Below are positions 16,426-42,311 of a stretch of 64,000 bases of DNA, in pieces (the first letter of the stretch is position 1; the number at the start of each line of letters is the position of its first letter). A program made the translations under genes and the position numbers. The notes beneath the pieces are model-generated. The model was not told the origin of the DNA, made no database searches, and was given only the letters and a program-made list of their open reading frames with translations. The stretch is taken from contig JAHECW010000001.1 in NCBI GenBank assembly GCA_024641545.1, positions 558-64,557 of the forward strand, written 5' to 3'. The DNA is from Acidobacteriota bacterium (GTDB lineage Bacteria; Acidobacteriota; Thermoanaerobaculia; Thermoanaerobaculales; Sulfomarinibacteraceae).

Positions 16426-16491
16426 CGAGCCACCGAGCGCCAGTGCGGTCCGATTCGAAGTCCCCACCCAACGGCGCGTCCGCCGCGCCGA

Positions 16492-17877: not shown

Positions 17878-18729
17878 CGGAGATCCTCCATCGGCCGGGC
17901 CCGAACGAACGACGACGCCGCTGCGACTGCGGCCGAATCCCGGATGGTGGTTCACGACCCGCGGGAGACCGGCGACCAACACGCCCCGGCGGGGTTCCGC
18001 GCTCCGGCTCCGCGCCCAGGCCTCAGATCCGAGCGCCGTCTCATGCTCTCGATTATAGACAGGGACATCGATCGTCTTGACGACCGGCTCTTCTCGCCGC
18101 CAGGGCCTGCGATGAAGGGTGCCACGTTGACAACCGCTCGTCGCGATGGTGCGCCGCGATGATCCGGTCGATCTCGCCGGAACCGTCGTCGCCTCCCGGC
18201 CTCAACGCTTCCCGGCGCCATCGGAGAGCGATCGTCCCCGCTGGCAAAGCGTGAACCTCCCGCCAGGACCGGCACTTGCATCCTTGTGCCACGACACACC
18301 CTGTGCCCGGAATTCGTGTGTCCTGACACAGGACGCAAGCCCCGCCGACGACCCCCGAACCAGGCCGCTCGTCGAACCGAAGCGAACCGCTGAGACGGAG
18401 GCGATGAGGCGGTTCTGATCCGTCTTCGTGGATCCCTCGATCACCGTCGGCGATCGGCTTTTCTCCGCTGGCACGTTTCTTGAGTCCCACGGGACGAAGC
18501 TTTCAGGCGAAACAAGGCCGCAAAGGGTGCAGATCGGCCGTAGCATGCCGGCCGCTTGGCACCCCGAGTCGGCGCGGCCGCAGGTCCTCCATCCCTGCGG
18601 CAACACCGGAGATCGGCCCCGGTGACTGCGCGGCGCCCTTTGAGGCGTCGAGAGAGGAGGTCATCGATTTCAATACCTGACCGCCCGCAATCGTGAAACC
18701 CATCGATTGAACCAAAGGAGGTCCAAACC

Positions 18730-25094: not shown

Positions 25095-26641
25095 CGGTCG
25101 CCTCCGCGCTGGTGGCCTCCCGAGCCCATGCCGGCAATGGCCGCCCGGAGCCCCGACTCGGAATCGAGGAGGAAGTTGGCGCGGATCACGACCTGTTCAC
25201 CTTCGGAGAGCCCGGACAGGACCAGGACCTTGCCCCGACCTCGGACGCCGACCTCAACCTGGCGCGGAACGAACGTGTCCGCTGACCGACGCACGAACAC
25301 CACCTGCCGTTCGCCGGTGTCCATGAGCGCTGACGCGGGTATCACGATCCCCTCGCTGTCCTCGACCGCGAGCTCGACGTCGGCGAACATGCCGGGCTTC
25401 AGGACCAGGCCGGGGTTGGCGAACTCGAAGCGGACCTTGAGGGTGCGCGTCGAAGGGTCGAGGGTCGGGTAGATGAACGCGATGCGGCCGGAGAGACGCA
25501 CACCCGGGTCGTAGGGCAGGCGGACCGTAGCCTGTTCGCCCAATCGCAGGGCGGCCGCCTCGTACTCGTAGAAGTCGGCCTCGACCCACAGTCTCGAGAG
25601 ATCGGTGATCGTGAACAGCTCCTTGCCCGGCTCGACCTGTTGCCCCTCGAAGACGTCCTTGGCGGTGACGTAGCCGGAGACCGGAGCGAGCAGGGTGACC
25701 GCCCGCTGCACGACGCCGCTCCTCTCGAGCTCGGCGACGAAGCTCGCCGGAACATCGAAGAGCTCGAGGCGGCGGCGGGCGGCCTTGAGCAGGTCCTCGG
25801 CGCCGCTGCGAACCTCGGGCAGCTCGGACGCTGCGAATCGGGCCGCGGTCTCCCGCACCCGGAGCAGCTCTTCCTGGGTCGCGACCAGCTCTTGGGAGTA
25901 GATCGAGAGGATCGGCTCGCCCTGTTGCACCAGCTGCCCGGTGAAGCTGACGAAGAGTTTCTCGACCCAACCCGGGATCTTGGTGTGGACGTGGCGGATC
26001 CGGGTCTCGTCCGGCACCACGCTGCCGACGGTGCGCACGCTTCGGGCGAGTCGCTCGCGGACCGCCGGCGCCGTCTGCACCCCCGCGAGGAGCAGCCCCC
26101 CGGGCGAAACCTCGACCGTTGCCAGCCCGGGCACCGCGCCTGCCGCGGCCGTCTGCCCGTCGGCAAAGACCGGGAGGAAGTCCATGCCCATCTGGTCCTG
26201 GGCCGGCACCGGCGAGGTGATGGTCGGGTCCATCGGGCTGCGGTAGTAAAGCACCTTGCGTTCACCCGGAGCCGCGGCATGACCCGCCCGATCCCCCGCC
26301 GCAGCGGGGGTGGCGGAGGCCGGCGCCGGCATGGCGTCGCCGGTGGCGACCAGCTTCATCCCGCATTTCGAGCATCTACCGGGCGTGTCCGATGTCACTT
26401 CCGGGTGCATCGGGCAGACGTACGCCGGAACGGACGTCGGGGCTGTCCGGGTCTCGACCGGCACCAGGCGCATGCCGCAGATCGGGCAGTCGCCGGGCCG
26501 GTCCGATAGAAACGTCGGGTGCATCGGGCAGTGGTAGGTTGCATCCGATTCGGCCTTGTCAGCACAGGCTGCGGTGAGCAACACGGCCAGCACACCGAGC
26601 ATGACGGCGGCCGTCCAGCAGACTCTGCGCATCGTGCCCAT
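25091..26641 (-). CDS. cusB: Efflux RND periplasmic adaptor (CusB-like) with two N-terminal heavy-metal-binding modules
   Basis: YHCPMHPTFLSDRPGDCPICGMRLVP and YVCPMHPEVTSDTPGRCSKCGMKLV, followed by a membrane-fusion-protein core (VTAKDVFEGQQVEPGKELFTI...). Confidence 0.85.
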   Translation of the reverse strand: MGTMRRVCWTAAVMLGVLAVLLTAACADKAESDATYHCPMHPTFLSDRPGDCPICGMRLVPVETRTAPTSVPAYVCPMHPEVTSDTPGRCSKCGMKLVATGDAMPAPASATPAAAGDRAGHAAAPGERKVLYYRSPMDPTITSPVPAQDQMGMDFLPVFADGQTAAAGAVPGLATVEVSPGGLLLAGVQTAPAVRERLARSVRTVGSVVPDETRIRHVHTKIPGWVEKLFVSFTGQLVQQGEPILSIYSQELVATQEELLRVRETAARFAASELPEVRSGAEDLLKAARRRLELFDVPASFVAELERSGVVQRAVTLLAPVSGYVTAKDVFEGQQVEPGKELFTITDLSRLWVEADFYEYEAAALRLGEQATVRLPYDPGVRLSGRIAFIYPTLDPSTRTLKVRFEFANPGLVLKPGMFADVELAVEDSEGIVIPASALMDTGERQVVFVRRSADTFVPRQVEVGVRGRGKVLVLSGLSEGEQVVIRANFLLDSESGLRAAIAGMGSGGHQRGGDR

Positions 26642-26642
26642 T

Positions 26643-27935
26643 TCACTCCTCCGATCCAGATCCGGCTCCTGATTCAGTCTCCGTCTCCACCGCCAGGGCC
26701 TGCAGCTCGGCCCACACCGTGTAGCGGTCGGCCTGGCGCCGAGCCAGCTCGACCCGCGCCTCGATCCACAGCTCGAAGTCCTCGATCACGGTCGAGAAGT
26801 CGCCTCTGCCGGTGAGGTAGGAGGATCGGGCCGCGTCAACAGCAGCGCTCGTCTGGGGCACGATGGCCTCTCGGTAGCGCACGATCTGCAGCTCGGCCCG
26901 TTGCCAGTCGGCTTCCAGCCGGGCGGCCTCGGAACGAGCGACCGCTTCGGCCTCGCGGAGCTCGGCACGGGCCAGCTTGAGCTCGTGCTCGGCCGCACGA
27001 ATCATCGGTTCCTGTTTGGTTCGACGCCACAGCGGCCACTCCAGACCGAAGCTCAGCGTCAGCACCGGTTCGAGCCCACCGCGCAGGCCGAGACCGGCGC
27101 CCGTCAAGAAATCCGGCTTGAGGTCGAGCCGGGCGACGTCGAGCCGCTTCTCCGCCGCGGCGACGGCCGAGCGGGCGATCGTGATCTCGGTCGAAGCGGC
27201 CAGCGCCGCCTGCTCCCACGGGAGGGGCGGGGCTTCTACCGGCGGCAGGGCCCGCACCTCACCGAGAGGCTGCCGACCCGGGCGGTCGAGCAGACGGTTG
27301 AGACCCGCAACCAGGAGCGCTCGCTCGGCGGTCAGGTCATCGGCCCTCTCCGCCAACCGAGACACCTCGAGCATCGCCTTGACCACCGCCTCCTGCTCCG
27401 TCCCGCCGACCCCGTAGCGGATGACGGCGGTCTCGGCGAGGAGGTCGAGGAGCTCCCGCGCGGAGTCGAGCTCAGCGCGTTCCCGGTCGAGGATGAAGAC
27501 CCGCGCGTAGAGGGTGCGGACCTCGACCACCAGCCGGCGCCGGACCCGCTCCAGCTCGTCGGCGCGGACGGCGACGACGGCCTGGGCCGACTGCCGCCGC
27601 GCCTCCCGCTTTCCCGGGTAGGGCAGGCTCTGGCGCACCTGGGGACCGATCATGGACATTTCCATGCTCCCCACGGTGAATCGCGGGAAACCGGCGTTCT
27701 GGAGCACGAGCTCGACCATCGGGTCGGGCAGCGCGCCGGCCGGCGCGACCATCTCTCTCGACGCCGCGAGCCGTTCCTCGACCGCCTCGATGGACGGCGA
27801 GCGATCGAGGGCCAGAGCGACCAGTTCCCCCACCGGGGGCGCCGGCTCGCAGGTCTCGCCGGCGGACGCGATCGAGGCAATGAGGCAGGCGCCGACGGCC
27901 AACGGTAACGACCAGCGGTGCCGAGCGATCATCAA
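26643..27935 (-). CDS. TolC-family outer membrane efflux protein (CusC-like)
   Basis: 430 aa. Signal peptide, long coiled-coil-rich repeats, and first position in the operon with cusBA. Confidence 0.8.
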   Translation of the reverse strand: MMIARHRWSLPLAVGACLIASIASAGETCEPAPPVGELVALALDRSPSIEAVEERLAASREMVAPAGALPDPMVELVLQNAGFPRFTVGSMEMSMIGPQVRQSLPYPGKREARRQSAQAVVAVRADELERVRRRLVVEVRTLYARVFILDRERAELDSARELLDLLAETAVIRYGVGGTEQEAVVKAMLEVSRLAERADDLTAERALLVAGLNRLLDRPGRQPLGEVRALPPVEAPPLPWEQAALAASTEITIARSAVAAAEKRLDVARLDLKPDFLTGAGLGLRGGLEPVLTLSFGLEWPLWRRTKQEPMIRAAEHELKLARAELREAEAVARSEAARLEADWQRAELQIVRYREAIVPQTSAAVDAARSSYLTGRGDFSTVIEDFELWIEARVELARRQADRYTVWAELQALAVETETESGAGSGSEE

Positions 27936-29758: not shown

Positions 29759-30316
29759 ATGCATGACTCGATCCTCCTTCCGCGATTTCGTTGGTTTGCC
29801 TTTTTGCTCATCGTTTTCGCGCTGCCGAGCGTCGCCGGCGCAGTCGACCCCTGCGACCCGGTTCCTCCGTTCGGCCTGCAGATCCCGTTCGAAGAACACC
29901 AAGGGGCTCGGCGGGAGTCCCAGATGGTCACGGTTCCCAAGGATGGCGAGGCTCCTCTCATCAGCTTTATCGACAGCCCTTCCGCAACCTGTTTCCAACC
30001 CGATTCGACCCGGGATGAATGCTGGATCAACTGGTACTACACCTCCGTCGACGCCGGCCCGAACTACATGATCTGCATGTACACGAAGTTCAACGCGACC
30101 GGGAAGGCAACCCGGACCCAAGGTTTCTTCCAGACCTCGATGTACGTGCCGTACAACATGTACGGCAAGGGTTTTCGGGTCGCCTGCGGCGCCCCCGGTT
30201 CGGGCGGCGACCCCGATCTCGGGATGGCCTACGCGTACACGATCCGGGCCAAAGACTCCGCCGGGCTGGGTTCGGCAAACTACGGAACCGTGTCGTGCCC
30301 GGCGTACATTCCCTAG
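29759..30316 (+). CDS. Small secreted 4-Cys protein, paralog A (unknown family)
   Basis: Signal peptide ...FAFLLIVFALPSVAGA. Shares QGFFQTxMYxP, CG..G and the C-terminal CP motif with the next gene. Confidence 0.6.
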   Translation: MHDSILLPRFRWFAFLLIVFALPSVAGAVDPCDPVPPFGLQIPFEEHQGARRESQMVTVPKDGEAPLISFIDSPSATCFQPDSTRDECWINWYYTSVDAGPNYMICMYTKFNATGKATRTQGFFQTSMYVPYNMYGKGFRVACGAPGSGGDPDLGMAYAYTIRAKDSAGLGSANYGTVSCPAYIP

Positions 30317-30338: not shown

Positions 30339-30908
30339 ATGCGAACTCAATCCAACGGCGGACCGCCGAGGTTCGCGCTCGCGGTCCTTGTGCTCTTTAT
30401 CGGGTGGATTGCCGTCGCGCCAGCGGGCGCGACCGACGACCGCGAAGCGCCGTACGCAGACGCGGAGCTGCCCCGGGCACACGACCTGAAGGCCGATTCC
30501 CCCGACATCTCCGGGATCGACGCTTCGACCCCGACCTGCTATCGAGCGGCGGTGAACTCCGAAACCTGTTTTGTCGAGTGGTCCTACCTCTATGTCACCG
30601 CCGGAAACGGTCAGTACATCATCAACATGAAGATCGAAATCGACGGCCGGGTGCGGGCCTTCTCCCAGGGATTTTTCCAGACTTACATGTACATCCCTGC
30701 AGACATGGTCGAACCGGGTTTCGCGGTGCCCTGCGGCCTCGCCGGGGCGGCCGGCGCAGCCAATCTGGGGAACCTCTACAGCTATCTGATTTCGGCGCTC
30801 GATTCGGCCGGACAAACGGCGATCAGCAGCGGCTCGCTGTACTGCCCGTACGCAACGATTCCAATTTTCTCGGACGGGTTCGAGAGCGGCGACATCTCGG
30901 CCTGGTAG
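30339..30908 (+). CDS. Small secreted 4-Cys protein, paralog B, carrying the C-terminal IFSDGFESGDISAW tag
   Basis: Signal peptide ...FALAVLVLFIGWIAVAPAGA. Colinear with paralog A (TC..C..W.Y, QGFFQTYMYIP, CGLAG, DSAG, CPY), plus a 14-aa extension. Confidence 0.6.
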   Translation: MRTQSNGGPPRFALAVLVLFIGWIAVAPAGATDDREAPYADAELPRAHDLKADSPDISGIDASTPTCYRAAVNSETCFVEWSYLYVTAGNGQYIINMKIEIDGRVRAFSQGFFQTYMYIPADMVEPGFAVPCGLAGAAGAANLGNLYSYLISALDSAGQTAISSGSLYCPYATIPIFSDGFESGDISAW

Positions 30909-30981
30909 GACTGTGCAGCGGACGGGGCTGGGCGGCGCCTTTCTCGGGTGTCGCCCGTGACGAGCCCGGCCGTCGCCCGCC

Positions 30982-33900
30982 CTACGGGGCCGCTGCCGAC
31001 CAGGCGGAGGCGTCCCCGGTTTCGAAACCGTCCGAAAAGACCCGCGAAACCTGCTCCGCCTCGAGCCGGATCTCATCGAAGGTCACCATCCCGATGGCGC
31101 TGCCGGTTGGGTTGAAGAAGTTCAGCCGCGAGATCGTTGCGGGGTCGCCGAGCTCGCCCAGGGTGATGGTGATCTCGGTCCACGTGTCGGCCGCCGCCGT
31201 GAAACCGACGCTGGCGCTCTGGCCGCCCACGCCCTCCGTGTACAGGCTGAGCGTCTTGTCGGCGCCGGCGCCGCCGTGGGCCCAGAACCTGACGGCGTCG
31301 TAACCGAAGGTGTCGATCGCCCCGGTCGACATCGCCGGCGAAAAGGCGCCCCAGCCATCGAGGGTGGCGTTGACCGCGTAGGCGCCCACCTTGACCGGCG
31401 AGGTGCCGGCGAGATCGATCGTCGCGTTCCACGACCAATCGTCCCAGCCGGGCGCGAGCGCGTCGCCGTAGATCACCACGGGAGGGGTCGCGTTGGAGCG
31501 AAAGGTGGCCGTCACCGTCCGCACCGCGTTCATGACAACGGTGCACTCCCCCACCCCGGAACAGGCGCCGCCCCAGCCGGTGAAGGTCGAGTCGCCGTCC
31601 GCCGCGGCGGTGAGCTCCACGCTCGTGCCGCTGAGGTAGGCTTCGCTGCAGTCGCCGCCGCAGTCGATGCCGGCCGGCGCCGAGGTGACGGTGCCGTCGC
31701 CTGACCCTTCTTTGCCGACCGTGAGCATGTAGGTGAGCCCGACCGGTTCGAAGGTCGCCGCCACCATACGATTCAACGTCATGGCCACTTCACAGGTGGG
31801 GTCGGCACCGAAGCAGGCGCCGCTCCAGCCGGCGAAGATCGACCCGCCGGCGGGCGAGGCCGTGAGCGTCACCACCGTTCCGTTCTGGTATGCCTCGCTG
31901 CAGTCGGCGCCGCAGTCGATGCCTTCGGGTGAGGAGGTGACCGTACCGCCGCCGCCGGCGATTCCGGTGTTCGTCACCGTGAGCATCGGGTTGTCCGGCG
32001 CCTGGGCCCCGGCGAGCCCGTAGAGATAGCCGTAGAGCGCCGTCTTCCCGCGCATGGTCTGGCGCGGTGTGAACTCGGCGTGCGCCCAGACCCAACGGGA
32101 TGGGAAGTAGGCTTCGCCGATGGGCCAGGTGTCCGGGACGTTCCCGGGATAGCTGTTCTCATAAAGCGCCGACGGCCTCCCCATCACCATTCCCGGGGCC
32201 CAATCACTGAGATTCAGGTACGGGGTGTGCCCCGGGTGGACTCCCGACACGCCGTCGTGCCGACCCGAGGTGTAGGCCTCCTGGAAGCTGCGCTTTGACG
32301 CGAGCGGTGTGAGCGCCGTCGTCATCTCGATGACGTTCAACGGGTTCCTGCCCAAGCCCCAGTCGGCCTCGAGGGCGAGAGCCTTGCGGAAGTGTTCGAT
32401 GTCGGCGGGAGTGTCGGCCACCGAATGGGCGATGATGGTGCGGTCCACGTTGTGAGCGGTTCGCCAAAAGGAGGCGGGCCCCCGGTCGGTCGCCCGGCGT
32501 GAGGGCCGGCTGTCGATGAGGTCGGCCTCGTCTCGTTTCGCCTGGGCGATGACCGCCGAAATCATGTTACTTCGCAGCGCCGGGTAGTTGACCGTCCGAG
32601 GGGTGTACAGGTAACCGGCGGTCGCCCAGACCTGATGCCTCGTCGCGTTCATGAGCTCCGCAGGACCCCCGGCGCAGACGCTCTCGGCGTTGACGACGTC
32701 TTCCCAGGCCCGGACGCCGGTCACGTTGTAGAGAAAGGCGGCGGCCATCATTTTGAAGTCGCGCCCCCTGACGAGGCCGTCATCGAGCCCCAGGCCTTCG
32801 TCGAGCATCGGATCCGCGAGACCGTCCGCGTGGTTGTAGGCGGCGATGGCCTGGTCTCTGTAGAAGTTCATCAGGCTCGTCAGCCCGGCCACGCGGAAGG
32901 CATCGGCGAGCATGGCGGCGTTGGCGGCGTTGGCCCACGCGGAGATCGCCGTCGGCCCGGCCTGGAAGAGCTCGTTGCCGCCGTTGGGGTTGGTCAGTCC
33001 GTACGAGTAGCCGCCGCCGTCACGCAACCGAAGCCAGAAATCGACCTCGTTGCGGGCCTCGTCGATGATGTCGGGGATGCCGTTGCCGCTCTCGGTGATG
33101 CCGGTGTCGTCGTCGCTGATGGCGCCGTCGGTCAGCAGAAAGGGCAGCAAGAGATCGTAGATGTTGGCGACGTGGGCCAGATGGCGATCCCAGTCCGCCG
33201 CGTCGGAGTGCCCACCCCAGGCGTCGGGGTTGGTCGGAAAGCCGGGCTTGCGGTACGGCGCCCAGTCGTCGGGCCGGTCCCACCGGTCACCGCTGGAGAA
33301 ACTGTCCCACTCGGGGTGCCAGGGGTGCATGGTCGTGAGGTACACCGTGGTCGTCGGCGGACTGACCCCGGGGATGTAGAGCGGCGTCCGCGGCGGCGGC
33401 GAGAGGCCGGACGGATTGGCCTCGCCGATCCGCATGTAGAAGTAGCCGCGCACCGAGACGATGAACGGGTCGTGATAGACGTCGTCGGCGATCTCGAAAT
33501 CCCGGCTGCACCCGACGCCTTCGACCACCAGCCGGTAGGTGCCGGGTTCGGTGAAACCCGAGAAATCGACATTCCAGACGTCGGATCGGGTGAAGTTGTA
33601 GCCGAAGACATCGCTGCCGTTCGCCATCCAGAAGGCCACGGTCCCCGCCTCGTGGGCCTGGCTCGCGTTGACATCGTAGACCCAGACCGTGTTGCCTTCG
33701 AAGCCGGAGTAGTTGCGGGCGCCGCCGCTGCCCATCCAGTGGTAGAGATCGGCGGCCTTGTGCGTCGCCTCCGGGGCATAGCCGACCAGGTTCACGTGCA
33801 CGGCTTCGGAGCGGTTCGAGTAGATGTCGAAGGTGAACGACTCGGATGTGTCGTCGCTGTTGGTGGCCGGGGCGATCTCGAGCGTGTAGGTCATCCCCTG

Positions 33901-34326
33901 CCGGAGCGAACTCGGCAGGCGGAGGTAGATCCAGTGCTCGTAGGTGTACTCATAGCGGTAGTCGCCGCCGATCCACTCCATCTCGGCGTGGCCGCTCAAC
34001 TTCTTCTTGCGATCACAGGCTTGCGGGTGCTGTCCGCCGATGCCGTAGGCTGGATCCTGGGCAGAAGTGATCGTCCAACTGGCGGTCTGGACCGCGGCGC
34101 CGGTGTCGAGCTCGGGGGTGTACCGAAGAACGGTCTCCCCGGCGCCGCTCTCGTCGTGAATGACATCCCCGTCGGACAGGTGGACGACCAGGACGTCCTC
34201 GTCGAGCACGCCGACATCGAGGAACTTCGCAGCGTCGACCTCGCCGGCTGCTCCGCCGAGCACGACGAGCAGCGACACGCGGAGCAGGAAACCGATCACC
34301 GCGGACCGAGAGCGACGACTTCTCAT
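30982..34326 (-). CDS. Secreted multidomain GH9-like (alpha/alpha)6 glycosidase-like protein: Ig-like N-domain, two InlB-B-repeat-like modules, a CBM-like domain and the C-terminal tag
   Basis: Signal peptide MRSRRSRSAVIGFLLRVSLLVVLGGAAG. CelD_N-like VNLVGY...YRLVVEGVGCSRDFEI. GH9-like WGGHSDAADWDRH. Two GTVTSxPxGIDCGxDCSEAY modules. C-terminus VFSDGFETGDASAWSAAAP. GAGGAG RBS. Confidence 0.65.
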   Translation of the reverse strand: MRSRRSRSAVIGFLLRVSLLVVLGGAAGEVDAAKFLDVGVLDEDVLVVHLSDGDVIHDESGAGETVLRYTPELDTGAAVQTASWTITSAQDPAYGIGGQHPQACDRKKKLSGHAEMEWIGGDYRYEYTYEHWIYLRLPSSLRQGMTYTLEIAPATNSDDTSESFTFDIYSNRSEAVHVNLVGYAPEATHKAADLYHWMGSGGARNYSGFEGNTVWVYDVNASQAHEAGTVAFWMANGSDVFGYNFTRSDVWNVDFSGFTEPGTYRLVVEGVGCSRDFEIADDVYHDPFIVSVRGYFYMRIGEANPSGLSPPPRTPLYIPGVSPPTTTVYLTTMHPWHPEWDSFSSGDRWDRPDDWAPYRKPGFPTNPDAWGGHSDAADWDRHLAHVANIYDLLLPFLLTDGAISDDDTGITESGNGIPDIIDEARNEVDFWLRLRDGGGYSYGLTNPNGGNELFQAGPTAISAWANAANAAMLADAFRVAGLTSLMNFYRDQAIAAYNHADGLADPMLDEGLGLDDGLVRGRDFKMMAAAFLYNVTGVRAWEDVVNAESVCAGGPAELMNATRHQVWATAGYLYTPRTVNYPALRSNMISAVIAQAKRDEADLIDSRPSRRATDRGPASFWRTAHNVDRTIIAHSVADTPADIEHFRKALALEADWGLGRNPLNVIEMTTALTPLASKRSFQEAYTSGRHDGVSGVHPGHTPYLNLSDWAPGMVMGRPSALYENSYPGNVPDTWPIGEAYFPSRWVWAHAEFTPRQTMRGKTALYGYLYGLAGAQAPDNPMLTVTNTGIAGGGGTVTSSPEGIDCGADCSEAYQNGTVVTLTASPAGGSIFAGWSGACFGADPTCEVAMTLNRMVAATFEPVGLTYMLTVGKEGSGDGTVTSAPAGIDCGGDCSEAYLSGTSVELTAAADGDSTFTGWGGACSGVGECTVVMNAVRTVTATFRSNATPPVVIYGDALAPGWDDWSWNATIDLAGTSPVKVGAYAVNATLDGWGAFSPAMSTGAIDTFGYDAVRFWAHGGAGADKTLSLYTEGVGGQSASVGFTAAADTWTEITITLGELGDPATISRLNFFNPTGSAIGMVTFDEIRLEAEQVSRVFSDGFETGDASAWSAAAP
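31498..31998 (-). repeat. Tandem pair of ~83-aa InlB-B-repeat-like modules inside the GH9-like gene
   Basis: Module 1: LTVTNTGIAGGGGTVTSSPEGIDCGADCSEAYQNGTVVTLTASPAGGSIFAGWSGAC...ATFEP. Module 2: LTVGKEGSGDGTVTSAPAGIDCGGDCSEAYLSGTSVELTAAADGDSTFTGWGGAC...ATFR. Confidence 0.6.
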
Positions 34327-34515
34327 TCGATCTCCTCGATCTCAGGGGCTGGCAACCACAGATCCGAACCATGGCGACGCTGCCGACAGTGTGCACGGCG
34401 TTCGCTCGGGCTGCAGTGTTCTGCGTCACCCGGCAGGGAAAGCGCGGCGAGCTCGCCGGGCTGTTCTCGTCATCGCTGCCGCGGTGCCGCCGCACCCTGA
34501 CGGGCGCCGCGTTGG

Positions 34516-35547
34516 TTACCGCGACGGGACTCGATCGCGTCGCACGACGAGGAATTCGCCGTTCTTCTCGGCGATGAGACCGCAGCTGGCGAGAACGACG
34601 TCGGGCGCCTGGATCGGACTCAGGCCCGCCGCGGTTCCGTGGAGCACGGTGTCGCGGGCGAATCGCTCGAGTCCCGGTTCCGAGTATCGGATGAGCGACC
34701 CGGTTTCCCTCGAGACCCACCCGAGGAAATCGGCGACGCTGCGTCCCTCGATGTCGAATGGCGGGGCGATCTCCTGCACCCAGGTCCAATACCCGGATGA
34801 GGGATCGATCCGCCGGCGATCGATCCGACCGTCCGCGCTGACTGTCACCGCCACGCCGCTGCCGACCTCGAGATCGAGATCGTCGCGGTTGATCGCCACC
34901 ACGCCCTCCCGGACCGCGACCGAGAGCAGTCCTTCCGTCAGCCTCACCTCGAATTGGGTGCCGACGTCGCTGGCGATGCCGAAAGGCGTCGCAATGTCGA
35001 CCGGCGAGCCGTTCGCGTCGCGAGAATCGAGATAGGCCGCTCCCCTCTCGAGATCGACGCGGGTCGTGGAGGCCAACCGGATCGAGGTGTCGACGTCGAG
35101 ACGTAGCGATTGACCCTCGCCGAGGCGGAGACCCGCGCGGCTCTCTCCCGCGGTGCGGATCCACGAGCCTGCAGCGATCGCTCTTGGTAGATCCAGTTCG
35201 GAACTCACGATCGAGCGTCCGTCGGCCGAAACGACCTCGACGCGGCCGTCGACAACATCGAAGTACGCCACCGGTCCGGTCGGCCGAGTGACGACGCGAT
35301 CGCTCCTGTCAAGCGTCGTGACGGCCACGGCCAGGATCGCCGCTGCCGCAACGCCGGCGGCAGCGATGGTCCACCGCCGCCTCGCCCGCGCCCGGAGGTC
35401 ACGCCGCCACTGTGTTTTGATGGCGGCCTTGATCCGATCGGCGCCGTCGGCCGGGATCTCCGGGCCGCTGTCGGCGATGCTCAGCAGATCGCCGACGAGA
35501 TCGCGCTCATCACGCCGGATCCGCGGGCGGTCGTTTCTGTCGCTCAT
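34516..35547 (-). CDS. FecR-family anti-sigma factor
   Basis: Cytoplasmic N-terminus, a single TM (WTIAAAGVAAAAILAVAV), and a periplasmic FecR-like domain (SLRLDVDTSIRLAS...). Start ATG 35547 overlaps the sigma stop (ATGA). ORF-track start 35910 rejected. Confidence 0.8.
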   Translation of the reverse strand: MSDRNDRPRIRRDERDLVGDLLSIADSGPEIPADGADRIKAAIKTQWRRDLRARARRRWTIAAAGVAAAAILAVAVTTLDRSDRVVTRPTGPVAYFDVVDGRVEVVSADGRSIVSSELDLPRAIAAGSWIRTAGESRAGLRLGEGQSLRLDVDTSIRLASTTRVDLERGAAYLDSRDANGSPVDIATPFGIASDVGTQFEVRLTEGLLSVAVREGVVAINRDDLDLEVGSGVAVTVSADGRIDRRRIDPSSGYWTWVQEIAPPFDIEGRSVADFLGWVSRETGSLIRYSEPGLERFARDTVLHGTAAGLSPIQAPDVVLASCGLIAEKNGEFLVVRRDRVPSR

Positions 35548-36152
35548 GGTATCGGTCCTTCCATCATGGTTGCGAAGCCGTCCCGGAAGGCCTGCCGCGC
35601 CCGGGTCAGCATGGATTCCACCGCCTTCGGCGTCATCTCGAGGCTGGCCGCCATCTCTCTCACCGACATCCCACGGATGTACTTCAGATCGAGGATGTTG
35701 CCGTAACGGACCGGGAGATGGTCGAGGGCGACGCGGACAAGCCGAGCGAGCTCTCGCCGCTCGAAGGCATCGTCGGGAGCCGGCTCGAGCGCAGCCAGCG
35801 ATTCGAGGGCGGCCCGGATTTCGGGTCGATCCTCTATCAGGGGGACGGTGGGCGCCGATCGTCCGAGGCGCCGCCAGTGGGCCGCGATCTCGTAGCGGCA
35901 GAAGCTGCACAACCAGGAGAACAGCTGCGCCTCCGCCCGGTAGAGATGGAGCTTCGGGACGATCTTCTCAAAGGTGCTCTGGACAATATCCTGGGTGAGA
36001 TCCGGGTCGGACCCGACCCGGGGGTAGGCGAAGCGGTACAGCCGCGGGTAGTACTCATCGACGAGATAATCGAGCGCGCTCTCGTCGCCCTTGAGGATTC
36101 GGGCAACCAGCTCGCGGTCGTGTCGATGCGGGTCGATCATCGCAGTGTCCAT
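35544..36152 (-). CDS. ECF (sigma-70 family group IV) RNA polymerase sigma factor
   Basis: Region 2 (YYPRLYRFAYPRVGSDPDLTQDIVQSTF) and region 4 (LPVRYGNILDLKYIRGMSVREMAASLEMTPKAVESMLTRARQAF). Confidence 0.85.
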   Translation of the reverse strand: MDTAMIDPHRHDRELVARILKGDESALDYLVDEYYPRLYRFAYPRVGSDPDLTQDIVQSTFEKIVPKLHLYRAEAQLFSWLCSFCRYEIAAHWRRLGRSAPTVPLIEDRPEIRAALESLAALEPAPDDAFERRELARLVRVALDHLPVRYGNILDLKYIRGMSVREMAASLEMTPKAVESMLTRARQAFRDGFATMMEGPIP

Positions 36153-36261
36153 TCACACAGTATGTGTCTTCGAGCGAGAAAACCCTTCGTTCGGTTGGCG
36201 ATGATCGTTCGCCGGGGGCCGGGCAGACGGGCAAACCGGCGCGTCCAATTCTGACCCGGGG

Positions 36262-38670
36262 TCAAAAGGTGTAGCGGACACCCACCGAAGGGATGATCGG
36301 CATCCACCGTCGGTAGGTGGGATGAGCGGTCACCGACCCGTCGTCTCCGACCTCGAACTCGACATCGTCGAGACAGCAAAAATTTTTGGTGTTGAACAGG
36401 TTGAGGATCTCGATCACCAGGGCGAGGTCGCCCCGTTGGACCGAGAAGTCCTTGGTCGCCCGCACGTCGAACCGGTGGTAGGCGGGCAGGCGAGCGCCGT
36501 TGCGCGGACCGAGGATGGTATTGACCTCTATCCCGCCGCCGGGACCGACCACGACCTCGCCCGTCACCTCGGTGGTCGGCCAGCCGGTTCGCCAGGTACC
36601 GGCGAAGTTCAGGTTCCAGCGCCGGGGCAGGGCCAGATTGAGCCCGACGGTTGCGGCGTGGCGCTGGTCCCAGTTCCGCGGCTGCCAGTCGGCGTCGATC
36701 CGGTCCTCGGCTACGGCCAGAACGTAGCTGAACCACCAGCTCAGCCGGCCTCCGGTGTCGCGTTTGACGACGACTTCCAAACCGCGGGCACGACCCCGAT
36801 CGGGATCGACGAGGGTCCGGTCCGGCAGCGCCTCTGGGAAGAGGTCGATGGGGTTGAGGAGGTTTTCGTACCGCGGCCGGAGGTGGGACAGGTTCTTCTG
36901 GAAGACCTCGAAGCGGAGCCCGGTCCCGTTGTCGTATCGGTGTTCGAGACCGGCGAGCCAGTGCTCGGCCCGCTGCGCCGGGAAGAACTCGGTAACGCCG
37001 TCCTCGACCTGGAGCTCGTTGAGACGCTGACTCTGGTGGAACCGTCCCCACGCTGCCCGCAGCGCGGTGCGGGGGCCGAGCGAGTACAGCACGTTGACCC
37101 GCGGGCTCAGTTGGTTGTCGTCGATCCAGGTCTGGCGATCCCAACGCAGACCGAGTTCGATCACGAGCGGTGGCAGCGGCCGGAACCGTTCGGCGGCATA
37201 CAGGCCGAATGCCCACCCCTCAGGTTCGAGATCGACGGTGGTTTCGGTCGGGTCGGGCGGCGGCTGGGGACCGGCTTCGGTCTGGCTTCGCAGGTAGTCG
37301 TAGAACGACTCCTGGTGGGTGACGTCGATGCCCCACTTGAGGAGATGATTCTGATTGAGATCGTAGGTCCAGTCCTGCCGCAGATCGGCGAAGTCGAAGG
37401 AGCGCCGGTCGTCGATGCTGAGGTCACCCCGCTCCGAGTCCGCCAAGCCTCCGACGCGGTGCCGGGTCAATCGCCCACTGCCGAGCACGGTCTGCGAGGA
37501 GAGCCGCTCGGTCCATGTTGTACGAAGGTTGAACCAGAGATGGGCGCTGTCGTACTTCGCCGTTACCTCCTCGAAGCCTTCGACATCCTCGGTTCGGTAG
37601 CCGAGATCGTCGAAGGCCATCAAGAGATCGGCCGACAGGGTCGAGCGCGAACCCACCGAGTGCTCGATCTTGGCGAAGAGATCGTAGTACTCCGTCGATA
37701 TCCAGTCGCTGGTGATGTCGACGAGGTTGGGCAGGAAATCCGGGTACCAGGCCCGGGCGCTGACCAGCCATGATCCCTCACCCTCGTCGAACAGGCCCTG
37801 CGAGACCACGCCGGCGTTCATCGTGCTCGCAACGAGAGCCGTGGACGTCGGCCCCGACGGAGTCGCCACCGAGATGTCCATGACACCGCTCATGCGGTCG
37901 CCGAACTCCACCGGGAAACCGCCGGTCAGGAGATCGACGCTGCCCACCGCAGCCGAGTCGATGACGCTGAAGACATTCTGGAAATCCTTGAGATGGAACG
38001 GCTCGTAGAGCTCGGCGCCGTCCAGGAGCACCAGCAGCTCCCCCTGCTCGCCGCCCCTGACGTTGAAGCTCGCCGAGTAGTCGCCTCCCGCCATACCGGG
38101 CAGCCGCCGCACCGCCCGGTAGAGATCGTCGGCCAGATGGGGCATCTGCTCGACCTCGTTTCGGCTCAGGAACTGTCGCGCCTCCGGCCTCTCCTCGAGA
38201 ATCGTGAAGCGGCTCGGCGTCACCACCACCTCGGCGAGAAATATCGGATTGGGGATGGTTGGCTCGGCGGCAACGGGTCCGCTGTCTGAGTCGGCGTTCG
38301 TCGACTCATGACCGGGGGCTGCAGCCGCGACGATGACGATGATGCCGCCCGCCGCCTCCCGGCTGACCAAATCGTGCGGCTCGAGGATCTCATCCAGAAG
38401 TTTGCGGGGATCGGATGCTCGCGGTTCGTTCTCGACGATCATCCCGGGCCTGACCACGGCGGTGGAGTAGACGATCTTCAGACCACCGGTCTGGAGCTCC
38501 CGAAGCACGTCCTCGAGCGACCGCCCGGAGTACGGCGGCGTCGCCCCGACCGACCCGACCACCGCGACCGCCGTGATGAGTGTGGCTGTCGTGAATCGAC
38601 CGAAGAAACGACCGCCGAGCTTCAATATCCCATGCCTGTCACGGTCACATCTTAACCGCGGTCGCTTCAT
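36262..38670 (-). CDS. TonB-dependent receptor with N-terminal STN signalling domain (FecA-type transducer)
   Basis: STN-like SLEDVLRELQTGGLKIVYSTAVV...LLDEILEPHDLV. Plug EVVVTPSRF...VRRLPGM...NVRGGEQGELLVLLDG. Terminus VGVRYTF. Start moved to MKRPRL (38670). Confidence 0.85.
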   Translation of the reverse strand: MKRPRLRCDRDRHGILKLGGRFFGRFTTATLITAVAVVGSVGATPPYSGRSLEDVLRELQTGGLKIVYSTAVVRPGMIVENEPRASDPRKLLDEILEPHDLVSREAAGGIIVIVAAAAPGHESTNADSDSGPVAAEPTIPNPIFLAEVVVTPSRFTILEERPEARQFLSRNEVEQMPHLADDLYRAVRRLPGMAGGDYSASFNVRGGEQGELLVLLDGAELYEPFHLKDFQNVFSVIDSAAVGSVDLLTGGFPVEFGDRMSGVMDISVATPSGPTSTALVASTMNAGVVSQGLFDEGEGSWLVSARAWYPDFLPNLVDITSDWISTEYYDLFAKIEHSVGSRSTLSADLLMAFDDLGYRTEDVEGFEEVTAKYDSAHLWFNLRTTWTERLSSQTVLGSGRLTRHRVGGLADSERGDLSIDDRRSFDFADLRQDWTYDLNQNHLLKWGIDVTHQESFYDYLRSQTEAGPQPPPDPTETTVDLEPEGWAFGLYAAERFRPLPPLVIELGLRWDRQTWIDDNQLSPRVNVLYSLGPRTALRAAWGRFHQSQRLNELQVEDGVTEFFPAQRAEHWLAGLEHRYDNGTGLRFEVFQKNLSHLRPRYENLLNPIDLFPEALPDRTLVDPDRGRARGLEVVVKRDTGGRLSWWFSYVLAVAEDRIDADWQPRNWDQRHAATVGLNLALPRRWNLNFAGTWRTGWPTTEVTGEVVVGPGGGIEVNTILGPRNGARLPAYHRFDVRATKDFSVQRGDLALVIEILNLFNTKNFCCLDDVEFEVGDDGSVTAHPTYRRWMPIIPSVGVRYTF

Positions 38671-38780
38671 TGATTGCCGGGGGTCAAGGCAAACGCACGA
38701 GCCGACCGCCCGATGCGGTCCCCTCCCAACTTGCCGCGAAGGATTCTCAAACGATTTCGACACCTACACGAAAGCAGTCG

Positions 38781-40349
38781 ATGGCCACTGCCGGTGTGGC
38801 GCAGTCGAGGGCCTCCACAGGATCGGGTGCTGATCGCGGACGGAGGAGAGATTTGGAACGGAAACTACTGCTGGTGCTGTGCCTGGGACTTCTCGTCCGG
38901 ATGGTCGTCGGCGCGGTGCTGCCGATCACCGATCCGACCGAGGGACGATACGCCCTGATTGCCCAGGAGATGGCGGCGTCGGGCGACTGGGTGACGCCGA
39001 GATTGTGGATCGAGGGCGAGCAGGTGCCGTATCTCGGGAAACCGCCGCTCTTCTTCTGGGCGACCGCCCTGAGTCTTCGCCTTCTCGGAGCGTCCGAGTT
39101 CGCGCTGCGCCTGCCGGCGATGATCGCAGCCACAGCTCTTCTGGCTTTGATGTTTCTTGTGTTGAAGCGCTCGCATGGCACACCCATCGCGGCCACCGGG
39201 GTGGTCATCACGGCAACAACAGGCCTGGTGTTCTTCCTGTTTGCAGCGGTGATCATCGACCTCCAGCTGATGCTGTTTACTGCCGGCGCCGTTTTCGCCC
39301 ATTTTTCTTTTGTTCAAACGCCGGACGATGGTTCGAGGAAATGGTGGAGCCTGCTGGTCTTCGCGCTGCTCGCCGGGGGCTTGATGACCAAGGGTCCGGT
39401 GGCCATCGCTCTCTTCGCCCTGCCCGTCGGAATCTGGACCGCGGTGCACGGAAAGTGGGCGGCGCTGCGCGCCCACGAATGGATCGCCGGCAGCGTACTG
39501 TTCTCGGCCATGGTTGTTCCGTGGTTCGTTCTCGCGGAAATCCGCAACCCCGGCTTTCTCCACTATTTCCTCGTCAACGAAAACCTGCTGCGCTTTCTGA
39601 GCACCGGATACGGCGACCGCTACGGGATCGGTCATGCCGTGCCGCGCGGATCGGCCGTCCTGATGTTCGTCCTGGGCACCCTGCCGTGGGCTCCGATCGC
39701 GATCTGGGTCGTGGTCAAGCGTCGTTGGGAGGTCGTCCGGTCGACCCTGCAAGACGAGGGCTCGTCCCTGTTTTTCATCGGATTTCTCTCGATCGTCGTC
39801 TTCTGGAGCCTCGCTCGCCAGGTGCTCCCGACCTATGTCTTGCCCGCGATTCCGCTGTTCGGGGCATGGCTTGCCTGCGAGTTGAAACACTCGGAGTTTC
39901 CGGTTCGTACGCTGCGCTCCGTGACAACGGGAACCGTTGCGGCCTGGTGCCTGGTGCTGTGCGCCGCCGCGCCCATCACCGCATCCAGGTCGACCCGCCA
40001 CGTCCTTGCCGAGACCACCCGCGTGCTCGGCACCGGGGTCGGCTCCACTGAGATTGTGTTTGCCGGGCGAGCCCCGCACTCTGCGTTCTTCTACGCCCCT
40101 GATCGGATCACCCAGCGTTCCCCTGAGACGATCCGTGATTCGCTGCGTCGGTTCCTCTCCGCCGGCGACGGGAGTCTCCTCATCATCCGTGACCGTGAGT
40201 GGGAGAACCTGTCCAAGAATGGTCTCCCCCTCGTTCGTTTCCTGCTCGAGGTGCCGGGGTGGAAGGTCATCGAGTCGGCGACCGGGAATCGAAACGCCCA
40301 TCACGCAGGCGTCGACGCCGAACCTTCCTTGCCGCGGGGCGCGAGCTAG
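38781..40349 (+). CDS. Glycosyltransferase family 39 (ArnT / PMT_2-like) integral membrane protein
   Basis: DPTEGRYALIAQEMAASGDWVTPRLW...YLGKPPLFFW, typical of ArnT/PMT_2. Many TM segments. Start moved from 38670 to ATG 38781. Confidence 0.8.
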   Translation: MATAGVAQSRASTGSGADRGRRRDLERKLLLVLCLGLLVRMVVGAVLPITDPTEGRYALIAQEMAASGDWVTPRLWIEGEQVPYLGKPPLFFWATALSLRLLGASEFALRLPAMIAATALLALMFLVLKRSHGTPIAATGVVITATTGLVFFLFAAVIIDLQLMLFTAGAVFAHFSFVQTPDDGSRKWWSLLVFALLAGGLMTKGPVAIALFALPVGIWTAVHGKWAALRAHEWIAGSVLFSAMVVPWFVLAEIRNPGFLHYFLVNENLLRFLSTGYGDRYGIGHAVPRGSAVLMFVLGTLPWAPIAIWVVVKRRWEVVRSTLQDEGSSLFFIGFLSIVVFWSLARQVLPTYVLPAIPLFGAWLACELKHSEFPVRTLRSVTTGTVAAWCLVLCAAAPITASRSTRHVLAETTRVLGTGVGSTEIVFAGRAPHSAFFYAPDRITQRSPETIRDSLRRFLSAGDGSLLIIRDREWENLSKNGLPLVRFLLEVPGWKVIESATGNRNAHHAGVDAEPSLPRGAS

Positions 40350-40371
40350 CAAGGCTCGACGACGAGCGACC

Positions 40372-40386
40372 GAGGCGTGACGCCTC
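40372..40386. terminator. Short hairpin GAGGCG-TGA-CGCCTC between convergent genes
   Basis: Perfect 6-bp stem in the 44-nt gap between the stops at 40349 and 40394. No U-run. Confidence 0.3.
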
Positions 40387-40393
40387 ATCGGGG

Positions 40394-42136
40394 TCAGGGA
40401 GTCGTCACCGTCCAGCCAGCGGTGTCGCCCCACTCGAACCCATCCTCGAAGATCCCCCAGAGACTCCGTTGAGCGGAGTTGAGAATCGCCCGGTCCTCGG
40501 TGTTCCCGGCGTCGTACGCGCTCACCAGGCCGATGAGCTCGATTCGGGTTTCGTCGTATTCGGCGGAGAGCGTGAAATTGTACTGGAGAGTGAACACGTC
40601 GCCGTCTCCGACGGAGGGCGGGATGATCCCCGCCGTTCCCCAGGTCCCGCCGAGCATGGCACGCAGGGTCCGGTCGTGCACGAAACCGATGATCGGATCC
40701 CCCGCCCCGTAGTACGGGTGCGTCGGATCGGTGTCGTAGTAGTTTGTCTGGTCGTAACCCGGCCCTGATCCGGTGACGCCGTCCTCGACGACCCAGAGGT
40801 TGAAGCGAAGGTCTCCGGGGGCGTCGCCGAAGAACTCGGCTCGGACCGTCGCGAAGATCTCCCTCGTCGCCGGCTGGTAGGTGATATCGACCAGCGAAAC
40901 CGAGACCGGGACGATGTGGTGCAGCCGCTCGCCGGCCCGGTCGTTCCACAAAGCGCGGCTCAAAGAGACCGATGGCAGATCGGGGAACCGGTAGATATCG
41001 ATCAGGCCGGTCGGGTATCCGGCGATGTAGGTCGAATTGAGCTCTTCCCCTTCTGCGAAGCTCATCTCGTCGGTGTTGTGGACCGAGACACCGATGAGGT
41101 TGCCGTACAGGTCGAGAGCCTGTTCCAGCTTGATATACCCGTCCGGGCAGAATCCGCACCAGGCGCCGGTGTGATTCGTCAGAATCGCCTTCTTGGGCGG
41201 AACCCGCGAAACGGTGATGACTTCGGAAGTAGCGAGGTTGTTGGCGGTGTTGACGTCGGGTGCACCGTTGACCGCCGTGATCCACATCTCGATCTGGTAG
41301 GTTTCCACCGCGGCCAGCTGGGCCGGAACCGGATGGACGAACTCATGACGGTCGCCGGTGCCCAGAGCGAGACCGAGGAGCGTCCCGGCCTCGATCGGAC
41401 CGCCGTTGATCCGGTACGCCACGCCGACCGAGGTGATGACGTTCGACCCCTGGTTGCTGATGACGCCTTCGAGATCGACGGTCCCCGTGGGCAGATGGCC
41501 GGAGGTCAGGACCTCGTCCATCGCTCCATCGGTCGCCGGAGTGGTCGAGACGAGCACATCATCCACCGCGAAACCATCCGCCCAGAAACCGTTGTCGTCG
41601 TGGTGGAACCCGATCTCGACGATGGTGCTCGTCGTGAAGGCCGACAGATCGACGACGCCCTCGGTCCAATCCGCCGCCGGTGGAACTATCGCCGCGACGA
41701 CCCACGGGCCGCCGTTGACTCGAATCTCCACCGTGCCGACCGATCCGTAGGTGGCGGGCTGGACATAGGAGAAGTGCAACCCGACACCGGTGCCCGCCCA
41801 GGCGAGAAGGTCGATCGGCGGCGAGATCAGGTAGTCCAGATCCGCGAGGTTCGCGGTTGCCGAGCTGTCATCGTGCGCATCGTCGTTCGAAACCGCGTAG
41901 CGGCCGTGCGCCGAGATCGGGAAATACTGTGAGCCGAGGTCGGTACCGAACTCCCACCCGACCGATGGCGTGTTCTGGCTGGTCGACCACCCTGACGGCG
42001 GCGATCCCGCCTCGAAGTCCTGGGACAGCAACACGATTTGGGCCTGCGCCGTCGAGCCGAACACCAACCCAACGATGAAGATCATTCCGTGCAGCAGCGC
42101 TCGCATTCCGGCCTCCCTGGTTCGTTGTTTCGTCAT
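40394..42136 (-). CDS. Secreted protein with a choice-of-anchor-J/MAM-like N-domain, an Omp28-related thioredoxin-motif domain and the C-terminal tag
   Basis: Signal peptide ...IFIVGLVFGSTAQA. N-domain QDFEAGSPPSGWSTS...W. HTGAWCGFCPDG (Omp28-related / thioredoxin-like CxxC). C-terminus IFEDGFEWGDTAGWTVTTP. GGAG RBS before ATG 42136. Confidence 0.6.
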   Translation of the reverse strand: MTKQRTREAGMRALLHGMIFIVGLVFGSTAQAQIVLLSQDFEAGSPPSGWSTSQNTPSVGWEFGTDLGSQYFPISAHGRYAVSNDDAHDDSSATANLADLDYLISPPIDLLAWAGTGVGLHFSYVQPATYGSVGTVEIRVNGGPWVVAAIVPPAADWTEGVVDLSAFTTSTIVEIGFHHDDNGFWADGFAVDDVLVSTTPATDGAMDEVLTSGHLPTGTVDLEGVISNQGSNVITSVGVAYRINGGPIEAGTLLGLALGTGDRHEFVHPVPAQLAAVETYQIEMWITAVNGAPDVNTANNLATSEVITVSRVPPKKAILTNHTGAWCGFCPDGYIKLEQALDLYGNLIGVSVHNTDEMSFAEGEELNSTYIAGYPTGLIDIYRFPDLPSVSLSRALWNDRAGERLHHIVPVSVSLVDITYQPATREIFATVRAEFFGDAPGDLRFNLWVVEDGVTGSGPGYDQTNYYDTDPTHPYYGAGDPIIGFVHDRTLRAMLGGTWGTAGIIPPSVGDGDVFTLQYNFTLSAEYDETRIELIGLVSAYDAGNTEDRAILNSAQRSLWGIFEDGFEWGDTAGWTVTTP

Positions 42137-42311
42137 TTCTCTCCACCTCACTCTTCTCTATCGATGGAAACCGTCGGAATCCTCACCGCGGGATCAGCGA
42201 AGTTGCAGTATCGCGCCGGTCGACGGGGGGTTGAGAAATCGAGGAACGGCCGGGCGCCCGGGAACTTCGTTCGGTGTGATTCAACGTTGCGTCGAACGGC
42301 CGCGGGCGGGC

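Follow-up and report, generated by a model that had tools for sequence, protein, structure and literature searches.

A short C-terminal sequence, hereafter the tag, is shared by three signal-peptide proteins encoded within a 64-kb stretch of an Acidobacteriota genome (assembly GCA_024641545.1, contig JAHECW010000001.1, positions 558 to 64,557; hereafter the window). Their common ending is [IV]F.DGFE.GD...W, followed by zero or five residues. Across related genomes the tag is biased to the extreme C-terminus of exported proteins, its sequence is nearly that of the first strand (beta1) of a ConA-like jelly-roll domain, and a family of stand-alone secreted proteins, the acceptors, uniformly consists of this domain without beta1. 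Acceptor genes adjoin tag-ended genes, and both families are present in Thermoanaerobaculia. We propose, as an even call in our judgement, that the tag is a donor strand that docks cargo proteins on the beta1-less acceptor by heterotypic donor-strand complementation (DSC).

The tagged genes (carriers), their tags and an untagged paralogue are listed below, with coordinates counted from the first base of the window.

29759..30316, plus strand: paralogue A of carrier B, 185 aa, untagged, ending ...SCPAYIP at its stop codon.
30339..30908, plus strand: carrier B, a secreted protein of 189 aa with an Ig/FN3-like beta-sandwich core, ending ...PIFSDGFESGDISAW.
30864..30905, plus strand: tag copy 1, IFSDGFESGDISAW, the short form ending at Trp, with the stop codon (30906..30908) directly after it.
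30982..34326, minus strand: carrier 2, a secreted enzyme of 1114 aa resembling glycoside hydrolase (GH) family 9, ending ...RVFSDGFETGDASAWSAAAP.
30985..31041, minus strand: tag copy 2, VFSDGFETGDASAW-SAAAP, with a five-residue tail and final Pro; stop codon at 30982..30984.
40394..42151, minus strand: carrier 3, a secreted protein of 585 aa from the first GTG, ending ...GIFEDGFEWGDTAGWTVTTP.
40397..40453, minus strand: tag copy 3, IFEDGFEWGDTAGW-TVTTP, with a five-residue tail and final Pro; stop codon at 40394..40396.
41987..42016, minus strand: FEAGSPPSGW, a tag-like stretch (QDFEAGSPPSGW) at the mature N-terminus of carrier 3, where its MAM-like region starts.

The open reading frames (ORFs) and endings are as given in a preliminary description made from the sequence alone, with one correction: for carrier 3 the stop was right, but the start had been placed at 42136, an internal ATG, instead of the first GTG at 42151. 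That description also left unstated that the genes of carriers 2 and 3 lie on the minus strand. A plausible signal peptide can be read from the sequence of all three carriers. A six-frame regular-expression scan of the 64 kb found exactly three strict copies of the tag, with 0, 5 and 5 residues before the stop, and no further strict copy, so the earlier remark that it was not seen on other secreted proteins of the window stands. The back-translated DNA pattern of the tag matched three times, compared with 0.00 matches expected from 100 dinucleotide-preserving shuffles. Synonymous sites differ among the three copies, so what is conserved is the protein sequence, and the copies do not stem from a recent duplication of DNA.

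The three carriers differ in architecture. Carrier B belongs to no family known to Pfam or NCBIfam. Carrier 2 has a CelD_N Ig-like domain (PF02927), endoglucanase-like stretches (it resembles endoglucanases 3x17, 1clc and 4cj0) and two InlB B-repeat domains (PF18998), followed by a tag that agrees with the lineage consensus F.DGFE[ST]GD[T][S][A]W-S.[TV]VP. In carrier 3, an N-terminal MAM-like region (InhA-like MAM domain PF20773, below threshold at E 0.013, residues 159-202) is followed by an Omp28/thioredoxin-like region (PF11551, NF033782) and then the tag.

Carrier B and its paralogue A are 40% identical, and A stops exactly where B's tag begins, as the preliminary description had noticed. 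A gene pair of this type, encoding an untagged protein of 185 aa and then a tagged one of 195 aa, is kept in another genome. Within the A/B family, 14 close homologues are tagged, and 17 at greater distance have a short tail of another kind. This gain or loss of the tag as a unit, together with its presence on unrelated carriers, agrees with the portable appended module suggested at the outset. The untagged family members P0235-P0252 end in a conserved tail, ..[FY].[LMA]P[LIV][IV][RK][RKH] at the stop codon, which may be an alternative C-terminal signal at the position of the tag. An AlphaFold2 (AF2) model of B, made with 33 homologues, has a core with a predicted local confidence (pLDDT) above 90, while residues 171-189 form a coil in which pLDDT falls from 68 to 48. 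That the model leaves B's tag detached from this core, and at low confidence, speaks against an intramolecular role. Foldseek searches with the core returned generic beta-sandwiches, none at E <= 1e-3, and nothing specific in the PDB.

To examine the distribution of the tag, one genome per species was scanned with the strict pattern TTYNNNGAYGGNTTYGARNNNGGNGAYNNNNNNNNNTGG, which gave at least 132 motif copies at a minimum of 117 loci; taxon labels are those of the submitters, and the counts that follow refer to the matches listed. The tag loci are overwhelmingly metagenome-assembled genomes (MAGs) labelled Thermoanaerobaculia, Holophagae, Multivoradales or Acidobacteriota. The motif lies within 7 aa of the stop codon in 85/100 copies from Acidobacteriota-labelled records, in 7/9 from unclassified records and in 7/23 from other phyla. 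The expected bias towards the C-terminus of signal-peptide proteins is therefore present in Acidobacteriota; a mainly internal motif with no such bias, which the preliminary description had named as counter-evidence, is not what is found there. Exactly five residues follow the Trp in 64 of the 89 tagged ORFs, the last of them being Pro in 54 of these 64 tails, and overall the tail ranges from 0 to ~11 residues. The resulting consensus is [ILV]F[A/S/E]DGFE[S/T]GD-T-S-A-W-S-x-[T/V]-V-P-COOH. Its F, D, G, F, E, G, D and W positions were preset by the search pattern, and the independent signal lies in the other conserved positions (T, S and A before W; S-x-T-V-P after it) and in the distance to the stop. 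A crude test found a signal peptide in 50 of 68 full-length carriers, and most of the remaining 18 look like cases of over-called start codons.

The tag is not confined to C-termini. A protein word-index search with the tag profile returned 23 short fragments that were uninformative on distribution, but it revealed a thioredoxin/Omp28-like family with the motif directly after the signal peptide, at the mature N-terminus. This location is compatible with a docking strand and not with a processing signal specific to the C-terminus.

One secreted protein of thioredoxin/Omp28-like type has an in-frame TGA, in ...FEGFYVPT-TGA-GVC (L119:10001-10798, plus strand; also at loci L118, L120, L121 and L122). 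Judging from the sequence context, this TGA is probably the U-x-x-C redox centre of a selenoprotein that annotation has split into a 60-aa ORF and a downstream ORF. DGFESGD is found at the mature N-terminus of this protein, and a tagged GH44 is encoded nearby. Mini-proteins of 60 aa, once considered as genes consisting of the tag only, were rejected because they are the N-terminal part of this probable selenoprotein.

We scanned 82 tagged proteins against NCBIfam and Pfam. Among the NCBIfam matches were choice-of-anchor families Q (8), J (5), B (2) and D (1), seven M36 metallopeptidases, whose named relatives are dependent on myxosortase, rhombosortase or the type IX secretion system (T9SS), and S8-type serine protease models. 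Pfam matches comprised FG-GAP, BNR, beta-helix, C25 and PAD. The carriers are thus families that other phyla fit with C-terminal sorting signals (PEP-CTERM, MYXO-CTERM, GlyGly-CTERM and T9SS).

In Chloroflexota, Actinomycetota, Armatimonadota, archaea and a few Acidobacteriota (L045, L048, L117) the motif is non-terminal, and there it opens a domain of ~190 residues ending ..Y.DD.. or ..YFD.FES.R. This domain has only sub-threshold Pfam matches, all of them in the ConA-like clan (Polysacc_lyase, Laminin_G_3, CBM_4_9), and the motif aligns at positions 1-4 of these profiles. A profile search of 1.84 billion representatives recovered 3286 members of the domain at E <= 1e-3, many of which are multidomain proteins with the domain unsplit. 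In the long multidomain members, F-A-D-G-F-E-S-G-D-L-S-A-W stands directly before 35 of 48 domain copies, and this beta1 differs from the tag consensus at one position (L for T). By this comparison of sequences, the tag corresponds to beta1 of a ConA-like jelly-roll domain. The unsplit domain also occurs in a Fimbriimonas MAG, where two neighbouring genes (one at L033:3326-4162) encode PEP-CTERM proteins that begin, once mature, with the beta1 motif and continue with the complete ConA-like domain. Exosortase cargo in Armatimonadota thus includes the unsplit domain itself.

The complementary part of the domain came from locus L100, where a gene of 221 aa lies directly downstream of a tagged dihaem cytochrome ending ...LIFEDGFESGDTSSWSGTQ. 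Its product begins with a signal peptide (..GAMA|ANT..), after which the domain runs from hidden Markov model position 23 to the end, with beta1 missing. Homologues form a tight family of stand-alone secreted proteins of 196-241 aa (typically ~215 aa), with a common N-terminus, AxA|A[NQ][ST][LV]xV..AALNGTNFGL, and a C-terminus that hardly varies, Y.FDEFES[FY]R, in most cases with TLAP after it. Such stand-alone proteins, matching from the signal peptide on, account for 57 of the best 150 of the 3286 profile matches. The beta1 motif was present in 0 of the 77 stand-alone members examined, compared with 35/48 unsplit copies; P0215 is an unsplit stand-alone relative that has beta1. A Thermoanaerobaculia acceptor is represented by P0058 (KAB2965666.1 / MBZ0100903.1). 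The AF2 model of an acceptor of this type (pLDDT 85, predicted template-modelling score 0.81) is all-beta, with 13 strands, the first coming right after the signal peptide. Foldseek matched it to PL7 alginate lyases, TtX122 domains, BoNT Hc-N and legume lectins (E ~1e-6 to 1e-4, TM-score ~0.5), so the modelled acceptor fold is a two-sheet ConA-like jelly roll.

An apparent acceptor at the end of L001 was discarded, the similarity being confined to the signal peptide. A 61-codon ORF at L119:11636-11818 (minus strand) and L121:5547-5729 (minus strand) matches only the last ~35 positions of the acceptor (...GSCHFDTFESYRTLAAN at the stop codon) and looks like an acceptor relic or fragment, a few kb from tagged genes.

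A metagenome scan yielded 28 further acceptor loci; 27 non-redundant loci were analysed, 22 of them with usable upstream sequence. Across the 27 loci, 14 of 1792 six-frame ORFs had a tag-like ending, F.D.F[EG].[GQ]....W plus 0-8 residues. Ten of these 14 were the same-strand gene immediately upstream of the acceptor (10 of the 22 loci with usable upstream sequence); of the other four, one was divergent and adjacent, and three lay 1.7-5.7 kb from the acceptor. The usual partner is a secreted protein of ~245 aa, which we call X, ending C.D[VL][IL]FFD[NG]F[GE]..[GQ]....W...... at the stop codon, with a divergent tag, FFDNFG[TS]GD..RW. Canonical or near-canonical tags are found on the acceptor partners at L100, L127 and L132. 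Neither the acceptor nor the X family matches a Pfam or NCBIfam model. The X genes are as follows.

L128:825-1562
L136:9204-9944
L137:1125-1862
L140:1081-1818
L143:2347-3084
L144:3934-4671, minus strand

In every case they stand directly ahead of the acceptor gene, often with genes for an extracytoplasmic function (ECF) sigma factor, an anti-sigma factor and a LiaF-like membrane protein in front of them.

Acceptor genes stand among sulfatase-family, GT2/GT4, PMT_2, AlgX and methyltransferase genes, neighbours that indicate an envelope or exopolysaccharide locus. Nearly all the sulfatase-family proteins beside acceptors end ..L[RKE][AS]LGY[LIV][DEN] at the stop codon (L123, L127, L128, L131, L132, L136, L138, L139, L144 and L157), so that these loci have a second C-terminal signature besides the tag. 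Named members of the acceptor cluster are labelled Thermoanaerobaculia bacterium and Acidobacteriota bacterium. Tags of the FES type accompany acceptors with ..APGANDG.. and ..DNDT.. loops, and those of the FFDNFG type accompany acceptors lacking these loops; this covariation is clean, but it spans only two clades and was not counted as independent evidence.

According to the proposed mechanism, beta1 would have been copied, in Thermoanaerobaculia, Holophagae and related Acidobacteriota, onto many unrelated proteins exported by Sec, at the C-terminus or, occasionally, at the mature N-terminus. The acceptor would be the same jelly roll minus beta1, with its signal-peptide cleavage site at the place of the beta1-beta2 loop. 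After export, the flexible tag would slot in beside the acceptor's invariant last strand (Y.FDEFES[FY]R), physically complementing the sandwich, perhaps with a role for calcium, and the completed sandwich would tether the cargo enzyme to the acceptor non-covalently. The complex would reside at the cell surface, where the acceptor likely binds, or is held in, the glycan layer, given its lectin-like fold and its envelope/exopolysaccharide gene context. The terminal, unstructured donor expected in DSC is seen in the tag, which sits at the extreme C-terminus or the mature N-terminus and is a coil in the model of B, and the alignments suggest that the acceptor is short of one strand. The pattern of a homotypic fibre is not seen, as acceptors have no donor motif and carriers no acceptor domain, and the tag/acceptor pair may work like DSC without belonging to the pilus or fibre families. 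A fuller picture, against which we lean slightly, is a natural tag/catcher system in which an 18-residue donor strand on exoenzymes and a single secreted acceptor, held in the cell's own polysaccharide layer, would produce a cellulosome-like, cell-associated exoproteome.

The preliminary description had offered, as a second reading, that the tag is a complementing beta-strand, with the N-domain of carrier 3 as its model. The first part is favoured by the beta1 identity and the beta1-less acceptors. The choice of partner did not hold: FEAGSPPSGW at the start of that domain does resemble the tag, yet it is not the partner that we propose.

Several observations weigh against docking on an acceptor. 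No acceptor gene was found within the 64-kb window. Strand insertion has no obvious need for the strongly preferred tail of exactly five residues, with a final Pro, behind the Trp, and this free C-terminus could be recognised by something else. Most adjacent gene pairs involve the X family with its divergent tag, and the X-acceptor pairs may represent one inherited operon rather than ten independent events. Co-occurrence of tag and acceptor in the same genome rests on two contigs of one MAG bin: the acceptor on JAIOJQ010000043.1 and the tagged locus L084 (protein ending ...FIDGFESGDTSHWSDVVGLP) on JAIOJQ010000236.1, both in assembly MAG_60. No tagged gene lies within 10 kb of the acceptor at the Thermoanaerobaculia loci L157-L161, which is, however, consistent with donors dispersed over many cargo genes.

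The alternative that we take most seriously, although we consider it rather unlikely, is a conventional C-terminal signal for sorting or secretion (outer-membrane translocation or surface attachment), similar to the T9SS C-terminal domain, read by a dedicated machine and perhaps removed afterwards, with the likeness to beta1 reflecting ancestry only. Like T9SS, PEP-CTERM, MYXO-CTERM, GlyGly-CTERM and LPXTG signals, the tag is lineage-specific, sits at the extreme C-terminus of signal-peptide proteins and occurs on the same kinds of carrier (choice-of-anchor, M36, S8, C25). Within the window, the likely polymer-active GH9-like enzyme is tagged, and two GH28 enzymes and a GH88 are untagged. The best argument for such a signal is the conserved ...S.TVP-COOH tail. 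No known signal type fits, however, and the preliminary description was right to set the tag apart from PEP-CTERM, LPXTG and GlyGly-CTERM and to place it outside the catalogued models: no Pfam or NCBIfam model covers it in the four window proteins, in tails of 23-31 aa at E <= 10, or in the 82 tagged proteins, and our literature search found nothing on the motif strings or on sorting signals in Thermoanaerobaculia. PEP-CTERM signals (PF07589 / TIGR02595) have a PEP motif, a transmembrane (TM) helix and an Arg/Lys-rich tail, while the tag is acidic and has neither a hydrophobic stretch nor a basic tail; PF07589, which does match a true PEP-CTERM protein from L033, matched none of the window proteins and was outside the 25 commonest Pfam families of the 82 tagged proteins. 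LPXTG, GlyGly-CTERM and MYXO-CTERM signals, each with a motif, a TM helix and a basic tail, are absent by sequence and by NCBIfam search. The T9SS C-terminal domain (TIGR04183 / TIGR04131) is a beta-sandwich of 70-100 aa, for which the tag of 14-19 aa is far too short, as first argued, and NCBIfam gave no match with proteins or tails at E <= 10. The outer-membrane beta-signal, a terminal aromatic residue on the last barrel strand, does not fit either, because most tags end ...VP and the carriers are soluble enzymes. Gene clustering around the tagged loci (at least 117) produced no candidate sorting enzyme or sortase-like partner, and no classical sorting machine was found. A variable tail length and the presence of the motif at the mature N-terminus are further difficulties, and a sorting signal would leave the beta1-less acceptors, and their adjacency to tag-ended genes, unexplained.

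Less probable still is an autonomous adhesive or calcium-binding peptide that attaches directly to the cell's own polysaccharide, lipopolysaccharide or another common surface, with no acceptor. The tag is acidic and aromatic (three D/E; F, F, W), it is found at either terminus, and in a few proteins (L093, L106, L111) the motif stands alone between linkers. Complementation is the simpler explanation of the near-identity between an 18-residue tag and a buried or edge strand of a defined domain family; neither repeats nor multivalency were seen, and the beta1-less family would have no explanation. We think it very improbable that the tag is a non-functional remnant or domain-boundary element, left when a former C-terminal ConA-like domain was cut after its first strand. 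The motif is a genuine domain start in many proteins, and several tags immediately follow the final strand of a MAM-like or beta-helix domain, a possible start of a further domain. This would require an identical truncation point in 64/89 ORFs of unrelated families, and it sits badly with the conserved tail, the conservation of amino acids despite synonymous differences between copies, the gain or loss of the tag as a unit within one family, and the lineage-wide positional bias. That the tag is an intramolecular strand or cap that folds onto the last domain of its own carrier is scarcely credible to us: it resembles the first strand of the N-terminal domain of carrier 3, but the carriers have unrelated folds, the tag of B is modelled as a coil beside the core, and paralogue A and 17 homologues have the same core with no tag.

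Docking by DSC has precedents for its parts. In AbpX, DSC is chaperone-free, with Ca2+ at the interface of strand and groove, in jelly-roll matrix proteins, and DSC is more generally established for TasA and bundling pili. As in the known DSC systems (chaperone-usher pili, type V Fim/Mfa pili, TasA, AbpA, CanA of Pyrodictium cannulae and AbpX), a foreign terminal strand would complete a beta-sandwich, and the donor is amphipathic, with aromatic and acidic residues, and disordered before insertion. The tag/acceptor pair has no sequence relationship to these fibre families and differs from them in arrangement. DSC fibres are homotypic, each subunit has both groove and donor, and they polymerise; here donor and groove belong to separate proteins, many unrelated enzymes have the donor attached at their C-terminus, and an acceptor without its own donor strand is predicted to form a 1:1 docked complex instead of a filament.

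The proposed arrangement also recalls cohesin-dockerin systems, in which a short C-terminal module on varied secreted enzymes meets a common surface receptor, and glycoside hydrolases are tagged here too (the GH9-like carrier 2, and GH44 in L119). Dockerins, however, are autonomous modules of ~70 aa with duplicated F-hand Ca-binding loops, and they bind to the face of a cohesin that is already complete, whereas the much shorter tag is proposed to become part of the acceptor fold, and no Pfam dockerin or cohesin match was found on carriers, acceptors or X proteins. In SpyTag/SpyCatcher-type pairs, a terminal peptide of 13-18 residues supplies one beta-sandwich strand, and the rest of the domain is the catcher. 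Those pairs were engineered from CnaB2 and are locked by an isopeptide bond; the tag and acceptor would be a natural, ConA-like and presumably non-covalent counterpart. ConA-like jelly rolls (PL7, LamG, CBM4_9, MAM) share the fold of the acceptor and the unsplit domain, and a first strand with 'FE.G...W' is typical of them, but the matches are sub-threshold and no catalogued member has a beta1-less stand-alone form or a detached beta1 as a tag.

DSC itself is known; the sorting or retention system of the tag is undescribed, and we know of no bacterium for which heterotypic donor-strand docking has been described as a means of protein sorting or retention. Acidobacteriota are abundant polymer degraders of soil and sediment with almost no experimental cell biology, and to our knowledge it is largely unknown how diderms outside Bacteroidota retain secreted enzymes at their surface. 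If docking is correct, the tag would make the surface-retained exoproteome of uncultured lineages predictable from sequence, account for 'choice-of-anchor' proteins that seem to have no anchor, extend DSC from fibre assembly to cargo docking and provide a natural small peptide-protein coupling pair for biotechnology. Even if docking is wrong, the tag is a new, annotatable, lineage-wide C-terminal signal, and the acceptors are an uncatalogued family of secreted proteins.

Some neighbours of tagged genes were considered and set aside. Recurrent untagged neighbours (Ser/Thr kinase-TPR and ECF sigma pairs, and SDR proteins) are common acidobacterial families and were judged to be background. In the pairs (L030, L066, L077, L118, L119, L162 and others) the kinase is ~950 aa long and has TPR repeats, and the ECF-type sigma factor is ~195 aa long; their recurrence probably reflects an abundant acidobacterial gene pair. 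A PMT-type glycosyltransferase at 38670..40349 of the window adjoins a tagged gene and was considered as a modifier of the tag, but was left as a coincidence. It shares only 31% identity over 235 aa with the PMT_2 protein near the Thermoanaerobaculia acceptor, and no PMT cluster recurs beside tags when the neighbours at the tagged loci (at least 117) are clustered.

A pectin/uronate utilisation cluster and an adjoining CusABC-like RND efflux system lie in 2901..17982 and 21840..27935 of the window, and none of the secreted enzymes there is tagged. The cluster encodes a TonB-dependent receptor, the two GH28 enzymes, a DUF4861-GH88 fusion, an SDR protein, a 6-phosphogluconate dehydrogenase, a PfkB kinase and an aldo-keto reductase. 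Next to the tagged GH9-like gene, 34516..38763 (minus strand) encodes a FecR-like anti-sigma factor, an ECF sigma factor and a TonB-dependent receptor that is extended at its N-terminus, which together look like a unit for trans-envelope signalling in glycan use. The start of the longest FecR ORF, which overlaps the sigma gene, is probably over-called.

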